Of a stretch of DNA of 64,000 nucleotides, positions 6,910 to 52,701 are shown in pieces (the stretch's first letter is position 1; every line of letters begins with the position of its first letter). Made by a program: the position numbers and the translations under genes. The DNA is taken from contig CAKOJQ010000004.1 in assembly GCA_934090795.1 (NCBI GenBank), positions 349-64,348 of the forward strand, in the 5' to 3' direction. The notes under the pieces were generated by a model that did no database searches, was not told where the DNA came from, and saw only the letters and a program-made list of their open reading frames with translations. The DNA comes from an uncultured Bacilli bacterium (GTDB lineage Bacteria > Bacillota_I > Bacilli_A > RF39 > UBA660).

Positions 6910-8772
6910 ATGCTTGAACTTAGAAATATATGTAAAAAATATGATAGAGATGTTTTAAAAAAAATAAATTTAAAATTTGGTAATAGAGGTCTTGTTTGTT
7001 TAGTTGGAGAATCTGGTAGTGGTAAGTCAACGCTTTTAAATATTATAGGTGGATTAGAACGGGCTGATAGTGGTAAAGTTTTAATTGATGGAGTTAACAT
7101 TAATAAATTTGATAGTTCATATTATCATAATCAAGTTGTTAGTTATATTAATCAATATTATAATTTAATTGATAATTATAGTACTTTAGATAATGCTTTA
7201 TTACCAATTGATATTAGAAGAAATAGAAGCTCTAGTTTTGATGATAAAATATTTAAAATGTTAGGTATAAGTAGTTTAAAAAATAGTAAGGTATCTTCTT
7301 TAAGTGGAGGAGAAAAGCAAAGAGTTGCTATTGCTAGGTGTATAATGCAAAATACAAAAATTATTTTAGCAGATGAACCTACTGGTGCACTTGATTTAGA
7401 TAATTCTTATAAGATTATGGAGATTCTTAAAAATTTATCGAAGAAAAAATTGGTTATTGTAGTTACACATAATATGGAACTAGCTAATAAGTTTGCTGAT
7501 GAGATAATAAAACTAGTTGATGGTAAAATAGAAGAAAATGGTAAAAAACAGATTAGATCATATTTTAATTTAAGACAAAGAAATGAGGTTAAATTAACAA
7601 TAAGTAAATTGTGTAAATATGCAATTAAGAATATAAAAAATAAATTGTTAAGAAATGTTTTAGTTGTTCTAGCATTTACTATTGGTTTATGTAGTTTAGG
7701 GTTAGTGTTATCAATTAGAAATGGTTTTAAGAAGGAATTGGATAATTTAAATGGTTCATCATTTTTTAACTATCCAATTATTATTAGTAAAAGTAATTAT
7801 GTTGATGATTTTAATAGTAAGTTAGAAAATATTAAGGGAATAAATGTGAAAAAAGGAACATTTATAAATAATGTTATAGATGATAAGCTAATTAATATTA
7901 TTAATGAGATAGATAAAAAGTATGTTAAAGCTGTTAGTTATTATAGAGATATTGATTATAATTTTAAAAGTGTGTCGTATGTAAATCCTTCAAACAATTA
8001 TTTTTATATATTAGATGGTAAATGGCCGGAAAATGATAATGAGGTACTAATTCTTTATGATGAAGATAATTCAATAAGTGAAAAAGTTTATAATTATTTG
8101 GATGTGGAAAAAAAGGGACTTATTAACAATATTTTTTATGTTAACGGGAAAGAACTTAAAGTTTGTGGTGTTGTTAGATCTAATAATGATTATTTTAAGG
8201 ATTTAAGTGGGATAATTTATTCTAATAATTTATTTGATAATGAGATAACGGATATCTTTATTTATTCAAGTGATTTGGAATCTAAAAATATAATTAAAGA
8301 TAAATTAAAGGATTATAATATTTTAGATAATGCGGAAGATATAGTTAATAATTCGAAAAAAATAGTTGATGGAATTAGTATTGTTTTAATATTATTTAGT
8401 GTTATTAGTTTGATTGTTTCAGTTATTATGATATTCGTTATTTCTTATATTTCAGTTATTGAGAGATATAAAGATATTGGTGTTTATAAAAGTATTGGTT
8501 TTAGAAACAAAGATGTTAAAAACTTATTTTGCTTAGAAAATATATTGATAGGTGTTTGTTCATTTGTTTATTCAAATGTGATGTTGATATTAATAGGTAA
8601 TAAGATAAATGATTATGTTAGTTGTTATGTTAATATTAATAAAATTATGGTTATTAGTTTTTCTAATGTTTTAATTATTGGTTTTTTAAGTATATTTCTA
8701 TGTTATATTGCTAGTTTGATTCCTGCATGTATAGCATCTAAAAAGAAAATTATTGATGTTATGAATAATTAA
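6910..8772 (+). CDS. ABC transporter, fused ATPase + FtsX/MacB-like permease
   Basis: Walker A GESGSGKST, signature LSGGEKQR, Walker B ILADEPT. The C-terminal half has an FtsX-like TM bundle. ATG at 6910 follows AAGGGGAGA; the longer 6859 start is rejected. Confidence 0.8.
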   Translation: MLELRNICKKYDRDVLKKINLKFGNRGLVCLVGESGSGKSTLLNIIGGLERADSGKVLIDGVNINKFDSSYYHNQVVSYINQYYNLIDNYSTLDNALLPIDIRRNRSSSFDDKIFKMLGISSLKNSKVSSLSGGEKQRVAIARCIMQNTKIILADEPTGALDLDNSYKIMEILKNLSKKKLVIVVTHNMELANKFADEIIKLVDGKIEENGKKQIRSYFNLRQRNEVKLTISKLCKYAIKNIKNKLLRNVLVVLAFTIGLCSLGLVLSIRNGFKKELDNLNGSSFFNYPIIISKSNYVDDFNSKLENIKGINVKKGTFINNVIDDKLINIINEIDKKYVKAVSYYRDIDYNFKSVSYVNPSNNYFYILDGKWPENDNEVLILYDEDNSISEKVYNYLDVEKKGLINNIFYVNGKELKVCGVVRSNNDYFKDLSGIIYSNNLFDNEITDIFIYSSDLESKNIIKDKLKDYNILDNAEDIVNNSKKIVDGISIVLILFSVISLIVSVIMIFVISYISVIERYKDIGVYKSIGFRNKDVKNLFCLENILIGVCSFVYSNVMLILIGNKINDYVSCYVNINKIMVISFSNVLIIGFLSIFLCYIASLIPACIASKKKIIDVMNN

Positions 8773-41521: not shown

Positions 41522-43645
41522 TTATAAAGTAAAATTCCAAAATATTTTAATAGGTCTATTGTTATTTTCATCTTTTTTTCCTATTAGAATTTTTGATATA
41601 AATTCATCTATAATACGTCTATTTAATTTATCAATATGAGTATATTTTTCTAATATACTTTTTTCATTGATTTCATCATTTTTCTTTTCACTTAATTCAT
41701 ATATTTCCTTTTTAATTTCTTCAATTCTTAAATTAAAATTATCAATATCTTTTTGATATTTATTTTTTAACATAACAAATTCTGTAGTAGTAATTATTCC
41801 GTCAGCTTTATCATCATATAACATAGTAAAGCGGTCGCTTGTTTTATTCAACTTTTTTTCTATATCATTTTTTTCTTTTTCTAATATTTTCATATCTTTA
41901 TCATAATCAATACTAGACTTTTTTGATGAATAATTTTTTTCTAATTTTTCGAGATTATAATATTTTTCAATAATTTTATTTATTTCATTTAAAACTAATT
42001 CTTCAAGAACTTCGTATCTAATATAACTAGTATTATCACATTGAGTTCCGCCTGTTTTTCTGTGGTTTCTACAATGTAAATAAGGTTTCATAAAAGGATT
42101 CTTTCTTGGACCAGATTTGCAATTACTCTTTTGAAAAACTTTCCCACAAACAGCACAATATACTTTTCTACTGAAAATATGTACTTCGCCATTTTTACCA
42201 GGACGTGCTCTTGTATTTGATGTTGTTAAAATATCAACCTGATCAGTAATTAAAGAGTACAATTCACTATCAAGAGACAATGTTTTTTCTCTTAAATTAT
42301 CATATTTTTCAGTTATGATTTTAATATCATTATTTGTCAAACTATTATCTAATTCTTCTATTGCTCTATATACTTCATCATTTTTTCCTTTATCAACATC
42401 AAAGCTTTTAATATTTTCTTTAATAGCATTTATAAATTGTCTTGAATCTTTTCTTGCATTGTCCAAATCTATCTTTAACTTTCTGTCCGCAAATTTTTTT
42501 CTGACAATCTTAGAAATATCAGGATCTACAATTCTATCATGTGCACAAGCTATAATACTTTGCTCATTTTTAGGAATTTTTTTGTAACCCTTAATATTGT
42601 AAGCAATTTTTTCGGTCCTATGTTGTATCAAAATGCCGTCATAAGTTTCATCTAATAGGATCTTTCTTATTGTATCGGTATTCCAAAATTCTGCACCATT
42701 AGGAGCCATGCAACAAACAAATTTTAATCCTTGTAGTTTTTTATGCTTACTAGGTGTTGGTATCTTATTTTCATTAAGATATTGGCAAATTTTATAATAT
42801 CCATATCCATTAGCATACATAGAATATATTTCTCTTACAACTTTAGCAGCTTCTTCATCAATTACTAGATGATACATATCATCAGGATCTTCAATATAAC
42901 CATAAGGAGCAAAGGAACCGGTCCATTGTCCTGCGTCATTTTTGGCTCTTAAAGTTTTTTTAGTATTTATTGATTGTTCTTCAATTTTCCACTCATCTAC
43001 CATTGCAGTTATTTGACTTGATTTTTTATTACCTTTGTTGTAAGTATCAATATTATCTACAATACTTAAAAATCTAATATTCCATTCTATAAACTTTTTA
43101 TGTAAATATTTTTCTACGAATTCAATACTTCTTGCAAATCTAGCTTGAGTTTTACAAATATAAATATCTGTATTTCCAAGTTCACAGAACAAAAGTGTTT
43201 TGTTCCATTCTTCACGTGAACCATCACTTCCACTTATATCTTCTTCATAAAAAATACCGACAACCTCAATACCTTTGTCATTACAATATGATAATAACAT
43301 TAATAATTGATTTAAAATACTTTTACTAACATTGCCTTTTTCTCTATCTAAGTCCTCTTGAGATAATCTAACATATATTATTCCTCTTTTGCCGGGAATA
43401 TGTAAAGAACTAATTAATCCATTTTTTTTAAAACAATTAGGATTATTTTTTTTAGATACTTTTAATAAATCTCTTAAATAATCAGTCATATATTCTAAAT
43501 TATCTTCGGATAGCAATTTTTTTATTGTTTTAAATTCAGTTGTTTCTAAATAGTCATCTCCCGAAACATTATCAACTATATAGTCATTTGAACATACTGT
43601 ATTACTTAAATTACTACATACCACCTTTCTCTCATTTTTCAACAT
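41522..43645 (-). CDS. Large serine recombinase (integrase/excisionase of the element)
   Basis: Resolvase-type N-terminal domain (IIYVRLSQEDLD), recombinase domain, Cys-rich zinc ribbon (CAVCGK...CRNH...C) and a long coiled coil. ATG at 43645 follows AAAGGAAG. Confidence 0.9.
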   Translation of the reverse strand: MLKNERKVVCSNLSNTVCSNDYIVDNVSGDDYLETTEFKTIKKLLSEDNLEYMTDYLRDLLKVSKKNNPNCFKKNGLISSLHIPGKRGIIYVRLSQEDLDREKGNVSKSILNQLLMLLSYCNDKGIEVVGIFYEEDISGSDGSREEWNKTLLFCELGNTDIYICKTQARFARSIEFVEKYLHKKFIEWNIRFLSIVDNIDTYNKGNKKSSQITAMVDEWKIEEQSINTKKTLRAKNDAGQWTGSFAPYGYIEDPDDMYHLVIDEEAAKVVREIYSMYANGYGYYKICQYLNENKIPTPSKHKKLQGLKFVCCMAPNGAEFWNTDTIRKILLDETYDGILIQHRTEKIAYNIKGYKKIPKNEQSIIACAHDRIVDPDISKIVRKKFADRKLKIDLDNARKDSRQFINAIKENIKSFDVDKGKNDEVYRAIEELDNSLTNNDIKIITEKYDNLREKTLSLDSELYSLITDQVDILTTSNTRARPGKNGEVHIFSRKVYCAVCGKVFQKSNCKSGPRKNPFMKPYLHCRNHRKTGGTQCDNTSYIRYEVLEELVLNEINKIIEKYYNLEKLEKNYSSKKSSIDYDKDMKILEKEKNDIEKKLNKTSDRFTMLYDDKADGIITTTEFVMLKNKYQKDIDNFNLRIEEIKKEIYELSEKKNDEINEKSILEKYTHIDKLNRRIIDEFISKILIGKKDENNNRPIKIFWNFTL

Positions 43646-43689
43646 ATATCTTCCTTTCGTATATATTGAAAGCACTGTAATACAATCAA

Positions 43690-49533: not shown

Positions 49534-50961
49534 TTAAATCTCTTTTCCTTGTAATTCTTTTTCTAAAATCTCTTGTAAATATCTTTCTTCATTTTTACTT
49601 TCAGATTCTAAAAAATAATTAGCTTTTTTAATAAACTGTTTAAATCTAATATTTTTATAAAAAGATTTATTTTTATAATTAGTATATTTTTCTTTTGTAT
49701 AACCAAAGTGAGATAGTGATTTATAAAAATCAGTAGCGTTTATATCTTCACTTGTCATTCTAACAGCAGTAAATATATTATCAACATTAACATCTAAATT
49801 TGATCTTCTGATCCAATCACTTAATAACTTTTTAATATCATTATCAGATAATTCAGCAAGACGACCGAGTTTATATAATTCTTTAGCATACTTTAAAATA
49901 GTAGAGTTCTTTTTTACAGGACGACTTTTAAAATTCATATTCATTATATTAACTTTTAAAAATTCTTTTTGTCTTTTGATAAAGTCAGTAGAGTTATAAA
50001 CTTTAAAGTTATGTAAAATATCATTTCCTATTTTAGAATATAAACGTTTCATTTTATTTTCTATATATTTATTATTTGCATTATTACCATATAACTTTTT
50101 TTGTTCTCTTTGTATTTCTTCTAAACTATGATAGTACTTTTCAAATTCGTATTTGATAGTGTCGTGATATAAAATTCTTTCTATAACTTTATCAATATCT
50201 TTTCTACAATAATCTAAATTCTTTGAGTTATATTGAAGTCGGCCCCTTTTTGGTAGCTTATCATATAAATTCAATAAATCTTTATTTAATGCTTTTCTAA
50301 ATTTACTACTAAAAAATAATTCTTTATCAACTTTTGTAAAATTGTTTTTTCTTATCTTATATTCCAAACCTAAAAATAAATAATCTTGTTCCTGATAAAA
50401 AGATTTGTTATCTACTAAATAAGAAGCAATATTACTTTTTAAATATTTTATAGATGACTTTTCTAATGTATCTTTTTTTCTTCTAGTTTCTTTTTCAAAA
50501 ATAGTAATATGAAGATGTGGATTATCAGTATCATTATGTTTACTTGCATACCACCGTGTATTAGTTAAGTCAAAATCATTATCTAATAAAAATCTAGGCA
50601 TAATAGCTTTAGTCATCATATAATAATCTTGTTTAGTTTTAAGTCCAGATTCTAAAGCAAAATCTGGTGGGAACGAAATAACTAAATTCCACATTCTACC
50701 TGATTCATCTTTTGGCAAATCTTTTAATATATCTTCTTTTTTTACATCTCCGTTTTTATCCCAAATGTAATTAACATCATTATCAATAGTGTCATCATAT
50801 ATTCCAAATTCTTTATCAAACAATTCATCACTAGAAGAAAAGTCTTTTAAACTTTTTCCGTCAGCACCGTCCTTTGAAACATACTTACACCAACCACCAA
50901 CTAACTTTTGAAAATTAACACCTTTCTTATAACGAACGATAGCTACTATATTACTACTCAT
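49534..50961 (-). CDS. Relaxase, MobA/VirD2 (MOBP-like) family
   Basis: Three-His motif HNDTDNPHLHI (compare RP4 TraI HxDxDxxHxH). N-terminal Tyr candidate in WCKYVSKDG. Confidence 0.8.
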   Translation of the reverse strand: MSSNIVAIVRYKKGVNFQKLVGGWCKYVSKDGADGKSLKDFSSSDELFDKEFGIYDDTIDNDVNYIWDKNGDVKKEDILKDLPKDESGRMWNLVISFPPDFALESGLKTKQDYYMMTKAIMPRFLLDNDFDLTNTRWYASKHNDTDNPHLHITIFEKETRRKKDTLEKSSIKYLKSNIASYLVDNKSFYQEQDYLFLGLEYKIRKNNFTKVDKELFFSSKFRKALNKDLLNLYDKLPKRGRLQYNSKNLDYCRKDIDKVIERILYHDTIKYEFEKYYHSLEEIQREQKKLYGNNANNKYIENKMKRLYSKIGNDILHNFKVYNSTDFIKRQKEFLKVNIMNMNFKSRPVKKNSTILKYAKELYKLGRLAELSDNDIKKLLSDWIRRSNLDVNVDNIFTAVRMTSEDINATDFYKSLSHFGYTKEKYTNYKNKSFYKNIRFKQFIKKANYFLESESKNEERYLQEILEKELQGKEI

Positions 50962-51385
50962 CAGTTAGTTCCTTTTTATTTCTTAATTCACGAATATTTT
51001 TTAATACTTGTTCTCTTGCCACTTCTGTTATAGGATGATTTACTAAATGGGTATTTAATTCAGATCTTGTCTGTGGTATATCAAAATATTTATAAGTCAT
51101 ATCATTTTGTAATATTATAGTTTCTATTCCTATATTATTTTTATTTAGCATAGTAAGTATTTTATAGAATTGTTTTTCATTAGCGTTTTGTACTGTTTCT
51201 GTAATTAGTTCGACCAACTTTTTTTGTGTATCTAATAACATTGATTGTTCCAAATAATCTAATAAAACTAATTTACAATACTCACTTAATTTCATATTAT
51301 TTTTATCAGCTTGATCTTGTAATAATTTTTTCTTATGTGGATCTAGTCTGAAAGCAACAATATTTGAATTTTTATTTTCATTCAT
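50954..51385 (-). CDS. Putative relaxosome accessory protein (RHH N-terminus)
   Basis: IVAFRLDPHKKKLLQDQADKNNMKLSEYCKLVL fits strand-helix-helix. 8-nt overlap with the relaxase gene. Confidence 0.5.
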   Translation of the reverse strand: MNENKNSNIVAFRLDPHKKKLLQDQADKNNMKLSEYCKLVLLDYLEQSMLLDTQKKLVELITETVQNANEKQFYKILTMLNKNNIGIETIILQNDMTYKYFDIPQTRSELNTHLVNHPITEVAREQVLKNIRELRNKKELTDE

Positions 51386-51552
51386 TATTTACTATTCAAT
51401 ATACAATCCAAGTTTTCAAGTATATAATTTTTAATTATAATTTCTAAAGCAGTTTGAATTGATAATCCTTTTTTCTCAATAATCTTTCTAAATGCTTCTT
51501 CCATTTTTTGATCCACTTGTACTTTTAAATAATTATTTTTTTTATCATTCAT
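51385..51552 (-). CDS. Small ribbon-helix-helix protein (55 aa), not in the ORF track
   Basis: MNDKKNNYLKVQVDQKMEEAFRKIIEKKGLSIQTALEIIIKNYILENLDCILNSK. AAAGGGGG RBS. The TAATG junction couples it to the next gene. Confidence 0.5.
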   Translation of the reverse strand: MNDKKNNYLKVQVDQKMEEAFRKIIEKKGLSIQTALEIIIKNYILENLDCILNSK

Positions 51553-51598
51553 TTATATAACCCCCTTTTATAAAATAATAAAATTTTAATATAACAAC

Positions 51599-51724
51599 TT
51601 AAATATCTTTATTTATTTTTTCCATTTCTTTATCACATAAACTTGCAACCTTACAAGCACAGAAAACAAATACAATTAAAAATATTAGAATATTAATTCC
51701 TAAAATAATCAAAAATAATTTCAT
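51599..51724 (-). CDS. Possible 41-aa single-TM peptide
   Basis: MKLFLIILGINILIFLIVFVFCACKVASLCDKEMEKINKDI. Weak RBS. Lies between the oriT region and the RHH gene. Confidence 0.25.
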   Translation of the reverse strand: MKLFLIILGINILIFLIVFVFCACKVASLCDKEMEKINKDI

Positions 51725-52021
51725 AAAATCCTTTCTATCTTCGGCCAAGAGTTCGGCCAAAAAAATGTACTAACTTTTAAGTTCTATTTAAAGCAGGATA
51801 AATCCTGTTTACAAACAATTCGCCAGTGGCGAATTTTCCCTTATTTCATAAGGGTTTCTAAAAAACACAAGTGTTTACATTTCATCTTTTTGTTATACAA
51901 TCGTTAACTTCTTACCCTTTGAAAAATAAGGGGGTGTATAACAATCGTACACACTTTTTGAATATATATTTTTTAGAAAATCGCCACTTTTTGAATTGTT
52001 TTTTTGCCAAAAGTTCGGCCA
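51725..52021. other. oriT candidate region
   Basis: ~300-bp non-coding gap next to the relaxase module. It holds at least five inverted repeats, flanking GCCAA[GA]AGTTCGGCCA direct repeats and an ATCCTG|C nic-like core. Confidence 0.5.
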
Positions 52022-52678
52022 TTAATTATTAAGATTAGGTAATGGATTAAACTCCGGTGTAGTGGGTAGATTACCAAATGGCTTATTAAAACTTTTAGAA
52101 TTATAATCATATAAGATATAATCTTTAGCAGTTATTTTATTTTTAATAATAGTAGTGGGATCGGTATATTCAAATTGATTTGTTTTAGCATTATATACTT
52201 GTAATACTAAATGCAAGTGAACCCCTGTTGCTCGACCAGTCATTCCCATAATACCAACTTGTTGACCTTGCTTAACTTCGTCGCCGACATTGACAGTTCT
52301 TGAATTTTCTTCTAAATGCCAATATCCAGATCTATAAGTAGTTCCATTTATTTTATGTTCTATTAAAACATATTCAGCACCAGCACTATCAAGAGTACTA
52401 ACAACAACTTTACCGTCAGCTATTGCAACTATATTTTTTGTATTTACTGGGACAACATCTATACCATTATGTTTTGATTTTTCATTAGTAAATGGATCAT
52501 CACGTAGTCCATAATCAGATGTGATAGTAAAGTTATTTGTATCAAATGGAAGTACAAAAGAAGTTTTATAAGTTATCTCTTGATTACCAAATAATGAAGT
52601 AAGTAAAGCTACAATTATTAAAACAATAAAAATGATAAATGCAACTGGAAGTAGTGCAATTATCATTTTACCTTTCAT
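52022..52678 (-). CDS. M23-family peptidoglycan metalloendopeptidase (T4SS wall hydrolase)
   Basis: N-terminal TM anchor, HNGIDV (HxxxD) and GVHLHL (HxH). Confidence 0.85.
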   Translation of the reverse strand: MKGKMIIALLPVAFIIFIVLIIVALLTSLFGNQEITYKTSFVLPFDTNNFTITSDYGLRDDPFTNEKSKHNGIDVVPVNTKNIVAIADGKVVVSTLDSAGAEYVLIEHKINGTTYRSGYWHLEENSRTVNVGDEVKQGQQVGIMGMTGRATGVHLHLVLQVYNAKTNQFEYTDPTTIIKNKITAKDYILYDYNSKSFNKPFGNLPTTPEFNPLPNLNN

Positions 52679-52701
52679 TATAGTTGATACAATATCTTTA
52701 A

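Follow-up and report, generated by a model that had tools for sequence, protein, structure and literature searches.

A candidate origin of transfer with an RP4/T-border-type nick word beside a MobL-family relaxase operon in uncultured gut Bacilli

The non-coding gap between an M23 peptidase gene and a relaxase operon in an uncultured gut member of the Bacilli is, with a probability of roughly 0.8, the origin of transfer (oriT) of an integrative conjugative element. The gap lies in a stretch of 64,000 nucleotides (hereafter the window; GenBank assembly GCA_934090795.1, contig CAKOJQ010000004.1), where a preliminary description of the same DNA had already placed a candidate oriT. The proposal is strengthened by comparison with relatives, as the core of the gap is conserved like coding DNA and is found as a self-contained module on unrelated small elements. 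To our knowledge, nothing is known of the transfer biology of these gut Bacilli, and the analysis provides a precise candidate nick site and a relaxosome layout for the conjugative elements of this uncultured, small-genome group. Coordinates are collected in Table 1.

Gene context of the gap

The window has a G+C content of ~25%, and every gene from ~41.5 kb onwards is encoded on the minus strand. Besides the genes in Table 1, the region encodes TrbL-like and PrgI-like proteins, a sortase and SSB, and the whole set presents the picture of a putative integrative conjugative element. The gap itself is real, with the M23 stop codon ending at 52022 and the next gene, a small membrane ORF, starting at ATG 51724. 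This start is conserved and is preceded by a ribosome-binding site (AGAAAGGA, 51737-51730); TTG 51760 was considered as an alternative start and dropped in favour of it. The product of the small ORF is hydrophobic and has a CACK motif, and it is absent or unrecognisable in loci L007 and L016.

The relaxase scores 83.6 bits against the MobL profile PF18555 (cut-off 28.5, residues 4-333) and 18.9 bits against PF03432 (MobA/VirD2, MOBP), under the cut-off of 24.6, which leaves it outside MOBP by profile. The relaxase had at first been considered consistent with a MOBP enzyme; this holds for its HxDxxxPHxH motif and fails for its family. The layout is that of the MOBL type, with the 143-aa NikA-like gene coupled to the relaxase gene, whose start it overlaps by 8 nt. 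PDB sequence searches with the relaxase and with both small proteins gave no matches, and the 55-aa protein had no Pfam match. An AlphaFold model of the 55-aa protein (7 sequences, pLDDT 78) has an extended N-terminus and two helices. Its assignment to the ribbon-helix-helix fold is provisional, because a Foldseek search of the PDB with this model returned nothing usable.

Table 1. Positions of the features discussed, in window coordinates unless a locus is named; a slash marks the predicted nick.
Feature	Position	Strand	Remarks
Whole intergenic gap, taken as the oriT region	51725..52021	-	conserved module ~51741-51965
Predicted nick core TTATCCTG/C	51793..51801	-	predicted nick between G51794 and C51793
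Small inverted repeat CAGGAT-AA-ATCCTG	51794..51807	.	lineage-specific, left arm not conserved
Box TGTAAACA, nearest to the nick	51806..51813	-	nick -20; varies in step with the upstream boxes by lineage
Palindrome with 9-bp arms, AATTCGCCA-G-TGGCGAATT	51817..51835	.	middle base N across relatives; 23 nt 5' of predicted nick, minus strand
Hairpin CCCTTAT-TTC-ATAAGGG	51838..51854	.	loop N3 in relatives; compensatory outer pair; in minimum-free-energy fold
Inverted repeat AAACAC/GTGTTT (AAACAC-AA-GTGTTT, 51863-51876)	51863..51879	-	overlaps second TGTAAACA box, nick -86
Repeat pair TTGTTATACA and TGTATAACAA	51890-51899 and 51935-51944		ATCGT after each
Direct repeat ACAATCGT	51897-51904 and 51941-51948		
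Two ACGATTGT(W3)ACA boxes (51891-51904, 51935-51948)	51891..51948	-	either side of hairpin CCCTT...AAGGG (51915-51932)
Two GGCC boxes, 12-nt period (TGGCCGAA)	51743..51758	-	+36 to +51 past nick
Upstream GGCC-box copy	52006..52021	-	directly 3' of M23 stop codon
VirB4-like ATPase	55056-52702	-	
M23 peptidase	52678-52022	-	
Small membrane ORF, 41 aa	51599..51724	-	first gene past predicted nick; conserved ATG and RBS
55-aa protein	51385..51552	-	putative ribbon-helix-helix auxiliary factor
143-aa NikA-like auxiliary protein	50954..51385	-	PF21983, 28.2 bits, cut-off 27
Relaxase, 475 aa, Pfam MobL	49534..50961	-	motif HNDTDNPHLHI, Tyr at residue 27
Coupling protein	49378-47678	-	
C5 DNA methyltransferase	47697-46561	-	
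Large serine recombinase	41522-43675		8 kb from gap
Orphan loci L041-L069	nick e.g. L064 3188, L065 3168, L057 3063	nick strand	L057 is the reverse complement of the stored locus

Repeats and their expectation by chance

All of the repeats listed in the preliminary description are found in the sequence, either at the coordinates given there or within one base of them. The GCCAA[GA]AGTTCGGCCA repeats at the two edges of the gap are likewise present, with their coordinates corrected by one base to 51744-51759 and 52006-52021. When the gap was compared with 2000 dinucleotide shuffles, neither the count of perfect hairpins (P ~0.12) nor the summed arm length (P ~0.07) was unusual, and the occurrence of one 9-bp arm was borderline (P ~0.05). 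The G+C content of the repeat arms stood out in the same shuffles (P < 0.0005), and single-stranded DNA of the minus strand from 51785 to 51965 folds with z = -4.66, a stability that none of 200 shuffles equals. The density of inverted repeats by itself is weakly to modestly above chance in DNA of 32% GC. Repeat density is thus insufficient, and the significance of the gap rests on conservation and covariation as compared across relatives.

A consensus scan of the gap for promoters and terminators gave none on the minus strand. An Rfam search of 51300-52400 gave no family (one sub-threshold microRNA match is attributed to chance), and a BLAST search of 51386-52700 against PLSDB plasmids gave no match.

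Conservation and covariation among relatives

A search of species-representative genomes with the relaxase recovered 20 loci from uncultured gut Bacilli, at identities of 53-99% and all with one gene order; several of these genomes bear the record labels 'Tenericutes' or 'Mycoplasma'. The gene order VirB4, M23, gap, small ORF, 55-aa protein, NikA-like protein, MobL relaxase and coupling protein is shared by 16 or more related loci. In an alignment of the intergenic regions of 16 distinct sequences, a core of ~170-190 nt is nearly invariant, although the M23 and 55-aa proteins encoded on either side share only 50-70% identity. When identity to six diverged relatives is taken in 50-nt bins, the bin 51801-51850 reaches 91%, about that of the best coding DNA.

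Element copies with proteins 97-99% identical occur in several of the species-representative genomes, which, at the level of sequence, we read as recent spread. Two copies (L019 and L020) lie on one long-read chromosome (CP091726.1) and have frameshifts in VirB4, M23, relaxase and coupling protein that are probably homopolymer assembly errors, not decay. A 99% identical relaxase fragment on a 2.1 kb contig (L004, CAVCAD010000123.1) is binned as 'Bacteroidaceae', and is most likely a case of short-contig mis-binning, not evidence of transfer across phyla.

The palindrome and hairpin have changed in ways that preserve pairing. In a formal count of pairs over 11 sequences, pairing in the 9-bp palindrome is complete (100%), with both bases changed in two of the pairs, and two compensatory variants occur at the outer pair of the CCCTTAT hairpin. 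The observed covariation score exceeds that of all 500 column shuffles. A third covarying position of the palindrome (AACTNNCCACTGGNNAGTT) emerges in a wider set of copies, giving three altogether. The distance from the end of the palindrome to the G/C step is 23 nt here and 22-24 nt among related copies, and the order of inverted repeat and then nick that had first been described is upheld, with compensatory changes in the repeat. Covariation in a DNA palindrome fits a site for a dimeric protein equally well as it does a hairpin.

The predicted nick core

On the minus strand, 51801-51793 reads TTATCCTGC, as had been noted, and TATCCTGC at 51800-51793 agrees with the MOBP nick consensus (C/T)ATCCTG(C/T). 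This consensus is cleaved by RP4 TraI, by VirD2 and by the phylogenetically separate VirD2 of Tfs4 (PMC3772185). TTATCCTGC is identical in all 16 aligned intergenic sequences. Across all related copies, weaker matches included, TTATCCTG is followed by C or T on the nick strand in 50 of 50, in a set whose selection is partly circular, as the shortest BLAST matches are anchored on the block of palindrome plus nick. The 9-10 nt directly 5' of TTATCCTG vary freely (AACAGGAT, AACAGGT, ATACACGT, AATACACAC, CAGACACAG, CAGCCGTAG), and conservation therefore does not extend to the small CAGGAT/ATCCTG inverted repeat. That repeat, which the preliminary description had listed among the inverted repeats, is lineage-specific, its left arm being lost in most relatives. 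Changes in the CAGGAT arm remove the plus-strand ATCCTG in L009 and L014, and most orphan copies (described below) also have no ATCCTG on the plus strand. The earlier preference for the minus-strand core over the plus-strand copy therefore stands, the former being present throughout and the latter lost in most relatives.

An independent set of 11 relaxase loci, only 24-32% identical to the relaxase of the window, bears on the nick word further. Three of these loci, with relaxases 25-28% identical, have YATCCTGY in the intergenic DNA that immediately precedes the relaxase operon. By the author's estimate from base composition ~0.02 occurrences per intergenic region are expected, so that the nick word is found again where the sequence is otherwise unrelated. 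The three regions read TGTAATACAATTGTATTACA, TTCCC and TTTATCCTGCTTT in L035 (4440-4480, sense strand), AAAATCGTATACGATTTT, CC and TTATCCTGT in L036 (8280-8330, template strand), and CCTTATCCTGC in L037 (~7640-7700 of the minus strand, sense strand). In two of the three, the TTATCCTG word is preceded by a perfect palindrome at a distance of 2 or 5 nt, which puts the palindrome 10 or 14 nt from the predicted nick.

The region could be an oriT that is nicked elsewhere, either where the 9-bp palindrome ends or on the plus strand. In pLS20 the mapped nick does coincide with the border of an inverted repeat and is not ATCCTG, and the template-strand motif of L036 shows that the strand can differ. 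We consider this unlikely, given that the plus-strand word is missing from most copies, that TTATCCTG and the palindrome core are the only words invariant across all copies of the module, and that non-classical relaxases which share MOBP motifs cleave ATCCTG (Tfs4 VirD2, PMC3772185). From similarity and conservation, we infer nicking, the nicked strand and the exact position, and we place the nick at G51794/C51793 on the minus strand with somewhat lower confidence than the identity of the region as an oriT.

Boxes on either side of the predicted nick

An 8-mer box of the form TGTnnnAC is found at fixed offsets of -20, -86 and -116 from the nick, and sometimes at -159 or -170. Its sequence co-varies by lineage, being TGTAAACA here, TGTTAACA in L016, TGTAATAC in L051 and TGTCAGAC in L057. 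Repetition of the box is significant against shuffles (P <= 0.013) in 4 of the 14 sequences tested (L009, L016, L051 and L057); in the lineage of the window itself, with one upstream copy, it is not (P ~0.22).

Past the nick, the GGCC boxes number two or three in relatives, at about +35 to +70, and they are retained in many orphan copies. In L016 every copy of the GGCC box reads AGCA instead, and this holds also for the one that follows the M23 stop codon. The counterpart of the 52006-52021 copy in relatives belongs to a hairpin with a T-run behind it, 3' of the M23 gene. The edge repeats thus exist as first described, and their role is corrected to boxes of 12-nt period past the nick, the outer copy lying within a hairpin and T-run. 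Sequence-specific auxiliary proteins that bind at several sites would be expected to produce both the TGTnnnAC and the GGCC patterns. A further word, GTACAT, lies at 51765-51772 on the minus strand (~+22 to +29 past the predicted nick) and is retained ~22-30 nt past it in otherwise diverged lineages, as TAGTACAT in the window and as GGTACATAA or TGTACATAA in L051, L055 and L056; a binding site or an element of the -10 type may be present here.

Copies of the module without a relaxase

A DNA search with the core recovered the module (~170 nt, 51785-51965) from 34 of 301 genomes of the same family, in 31 genera, and for most of these copies the surrounding 3 kb are free of conjugation genes. Of 33 module-bearing genomes, 25 have no relaxase homologue, 24 of these 25 have no match to the MobL profile, and 14 of the 25 have neither a PF18555 nor a PF03432 relaxase, including genomes assembled in 1, 3, 4, 5 and 7 contigs; many of the genomes are metagenome bins, in which the absence of a relaxase may mean incompleteness. 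The check for other types of relaxase covered 3 kb on either side of each copy. In most copies, the gene of a large serine recombinase with Resolvase, Recombinase and Zn-ribbon domains follows the orphan module on the same strand, 340-610 nt downstream, with cargo nearby such as a Fic protein, an N6/N4 methylase, an ASCH protein and an IS110 transposase. Many orphans also retain the GGCC boxes together with the box variant of one lineage of conjugative elements. By their gene neighbourhood, the orphan copies look like relaxase-less hitchhiker elements that would use the relaxosome of this element family in trans.

Classical PF03432 relaxases were considered as partners of the orphans and rejected, as the loci that bear them (L070-L074) have no related oriT and no nearby ATCCTG, and belong to separate elements. 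One of these, a second small element that encodes a 434-aa PF03432 relaxase as well as a large serine recombinase of its own (L070 8293-11874, genome G605), adjoins an orphan oriT element on the same contig, which suggests tandem accretion of mobile elements. In L047, L048, L063 and L064 a conserved inverted repeat (GATAGCTAT...TAGTTATC) stands at +95 to +125 past the nick, followed by a T-run, in the interval from the GGCC boxes to the serine recombinase gene, and could be a terminator or a recombinase site.

The orphan copies also bear on whether the block is only the promoter and operator of the relaxase operon, with palindromes that are repressor sites and an ATCCTG that is coincidental. 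The functions of oriT and promoter overlap in RP4-type plasmids, the block lies directly upstream of the operon, palindromes and iterated boxes are typical of operators, and by eye a TTGTAA-N17-TTAAAT candidate can be placed over the small palindrome, which fails the criteria of the scan. A plain promoter or operator is disfavoured because the module travels without the relaxase operon, and intact copies precede unrelated serine recombinase genes in genomes that have neither the operon nor its small regulators. The block is also ~170 nt long with four to five structured elements, the scan of the gap gave no promoter on the minus strand, and the one invariant 8-mer is identical to the MOBP nick word, found also upstream of the 25-28% identical relaxases. 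We regard a purely regulatory block as very unlikely. Least probable is another cis-acting element, either a single-strand replication origin or a site of the serine recombinase, as the strong fold of the single strand and the proximity of orphan copies to a recombinase gene might suggest, since in the conjugative element the module lies 8 kb from the recombinase gene amid conserved synteny and so at no junction, an attachment site would be split once integrated and is ruled out by a module that is always intact, no Rfam family matches, and a single-strand origin could coexist with an oriT and would leave the conserved nick word unexplained.

Proposed mechanism and significance

As an oriT, the gap would serve an element that comprises a large serine recombinase, a type IV secretion system (T4SS; VirB4, TrbL-like and PrgI-like proteins), the M23 hydrolase, the coupling protein and the MobL-family relaxase. 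The two auxiliary proteins (NikA-like 143-aa and 55-aa) would occupy the TGTnnnAC boxes (-20, -86, -116), the 9-bp palindrome and the GGCC boxes, and would thereby position the relaxase on the minus strand. The relaxase would then cleave TTATCCTG/C and become linked via Tyr27 to the 5' C. The minus strand would be transferred 5' to 3' towards lower coordinates, so that the relaxase operon, the coupling-protein gene and the gene of the C5 (orphan) methyltransferase would enter first and the T4SS genes last, and rolling-circle replacement synthesis would be co-directional with transcription. This direction of transfer is held as a prediction, because the orientation of the motif is not uniform in distant relatives (template strand in L036).

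Beyond the single element, we lean slightly towards a reading in which one oriT module, made up of a MOBP-type nick at TTATCCTG/Y, a palindrome that covaries and TGTnnnAC boxes particular to each lineage, serves a network of mobile elements in small-genome gut Bacilli. The full element with its MobL relaxase would be present in a minority of genomes, and about three quarters of the module-bearing genomes would hold the oriT only, beside a serine recombinase, tracking the box variants of the element lineages. If this is true, part of Pfam MobL has kept MOBP nick specificity and the pLS20 nick is unrepresentative of the family.

That an oriT lies beside a relaxase operon, and that elements with an oriT alone hitch on others, is already known. 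What goes beyond the routine is the pairing of a MobL relaxase with the RP4/T-border nick word and the abundance of oriT-only serine-recombinase elements in gut bacteria. The former bears on the relation of MOBL to MOBP and cautions against extending the pLS20 nick to the whole MobL family. The module is also of use as a marker, as a DNA search with it finds relaxase-less serine-recombinase elements and their cargo (Fic, DNA methylases), which predictors of mobility based on genes would miss.

Comparison with known systems

One close comparator is the relaxosome of pLS20 (oriT(LS20), Aux1, Aux2 and RelLS20), the MOBL prototype. The two share the Pfam family of the relaxase, an oriT of ~300-360 bp followed by a pair of small auxiliary genes, the second of them coupled to the relaxase gene that comes next, an oriT with one palindrome and iterated direct-repeat boxes, and the placement of the oriT within a long string of co-oriented conjugation genes. 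In pLS20, the order is oriT-aux1-aux2-rel with the oriT immediately upstream of the auxiliary genes (PMC5675868), and the nick, the only one mapped for a MobL relaxase, is on the template strand, directly after GAATCGGGGGCCGG and where a GC-rich inverted repeat ends (PMC5313138). GAATCGGGGGCCGG is absent from the gap, where ATCCTG, in the sense strand, is the predicted nick word. Because of the MobL score and this difference in nick sequence, the system appears to be a MobL-family relaxosome with an RP4/T-border-type nick core. The lactococcal 'MobA/MobL' of pUC11B was set aside as a comparator, as the name denotes a different (MOBQ-type) relaxase and the paper defines no oriT.

The core TATCCTG/C is shared with the oriTs of RP4 and R751, the borders of Ti T-DNA and the tfs4 oriT of Helicobacter pylori. 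Further likenesses to MOBP-type systems are an inverted repeat on the 5' side of the nick in the nicked strand, a small NikA-like auxiliary gene adjoining the relaxase gene, and a relaxase with an HxDxxxPHxH motif and an N-terminal Tyr. The element differs from them in its relaxase, which is Pfam MobL and below the PF03432 threshold, in its host, a member of the uncultured gut Bacilli with ~25% GC, and in its predicted nick, which falls in the sense strand of the relaxase operon and would make this operon the first to enter the recipient. The palindrome is also farther from the nick, at 23 nt here, whereas it is adjacent in MOBP-type oriTs, with a spacing of ~8 nt in RP4. The inverted repeat has been placed 'immediately proximal' to the nick, with no figure given (PMC3772185).

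The orphan copies resemble the iOriT, integrative elements with an oriT alone that hitch on conjugative elements (Ares-Arroyo et al., bioRxiv 10.64898/2026.01.13.699239), in that they combine the oriT of a conjugative element with an adjacent integrase and cargo (Fic, DNA methylases) and have no cognate relaxase in the genome. They differ in having large serine recombinases, while serine recombinases make up <1% of islands in that study (bioRxiv 10.64898/2026.01.13.699239), and in their hosts, which are small-genome uncultured Bacilli.
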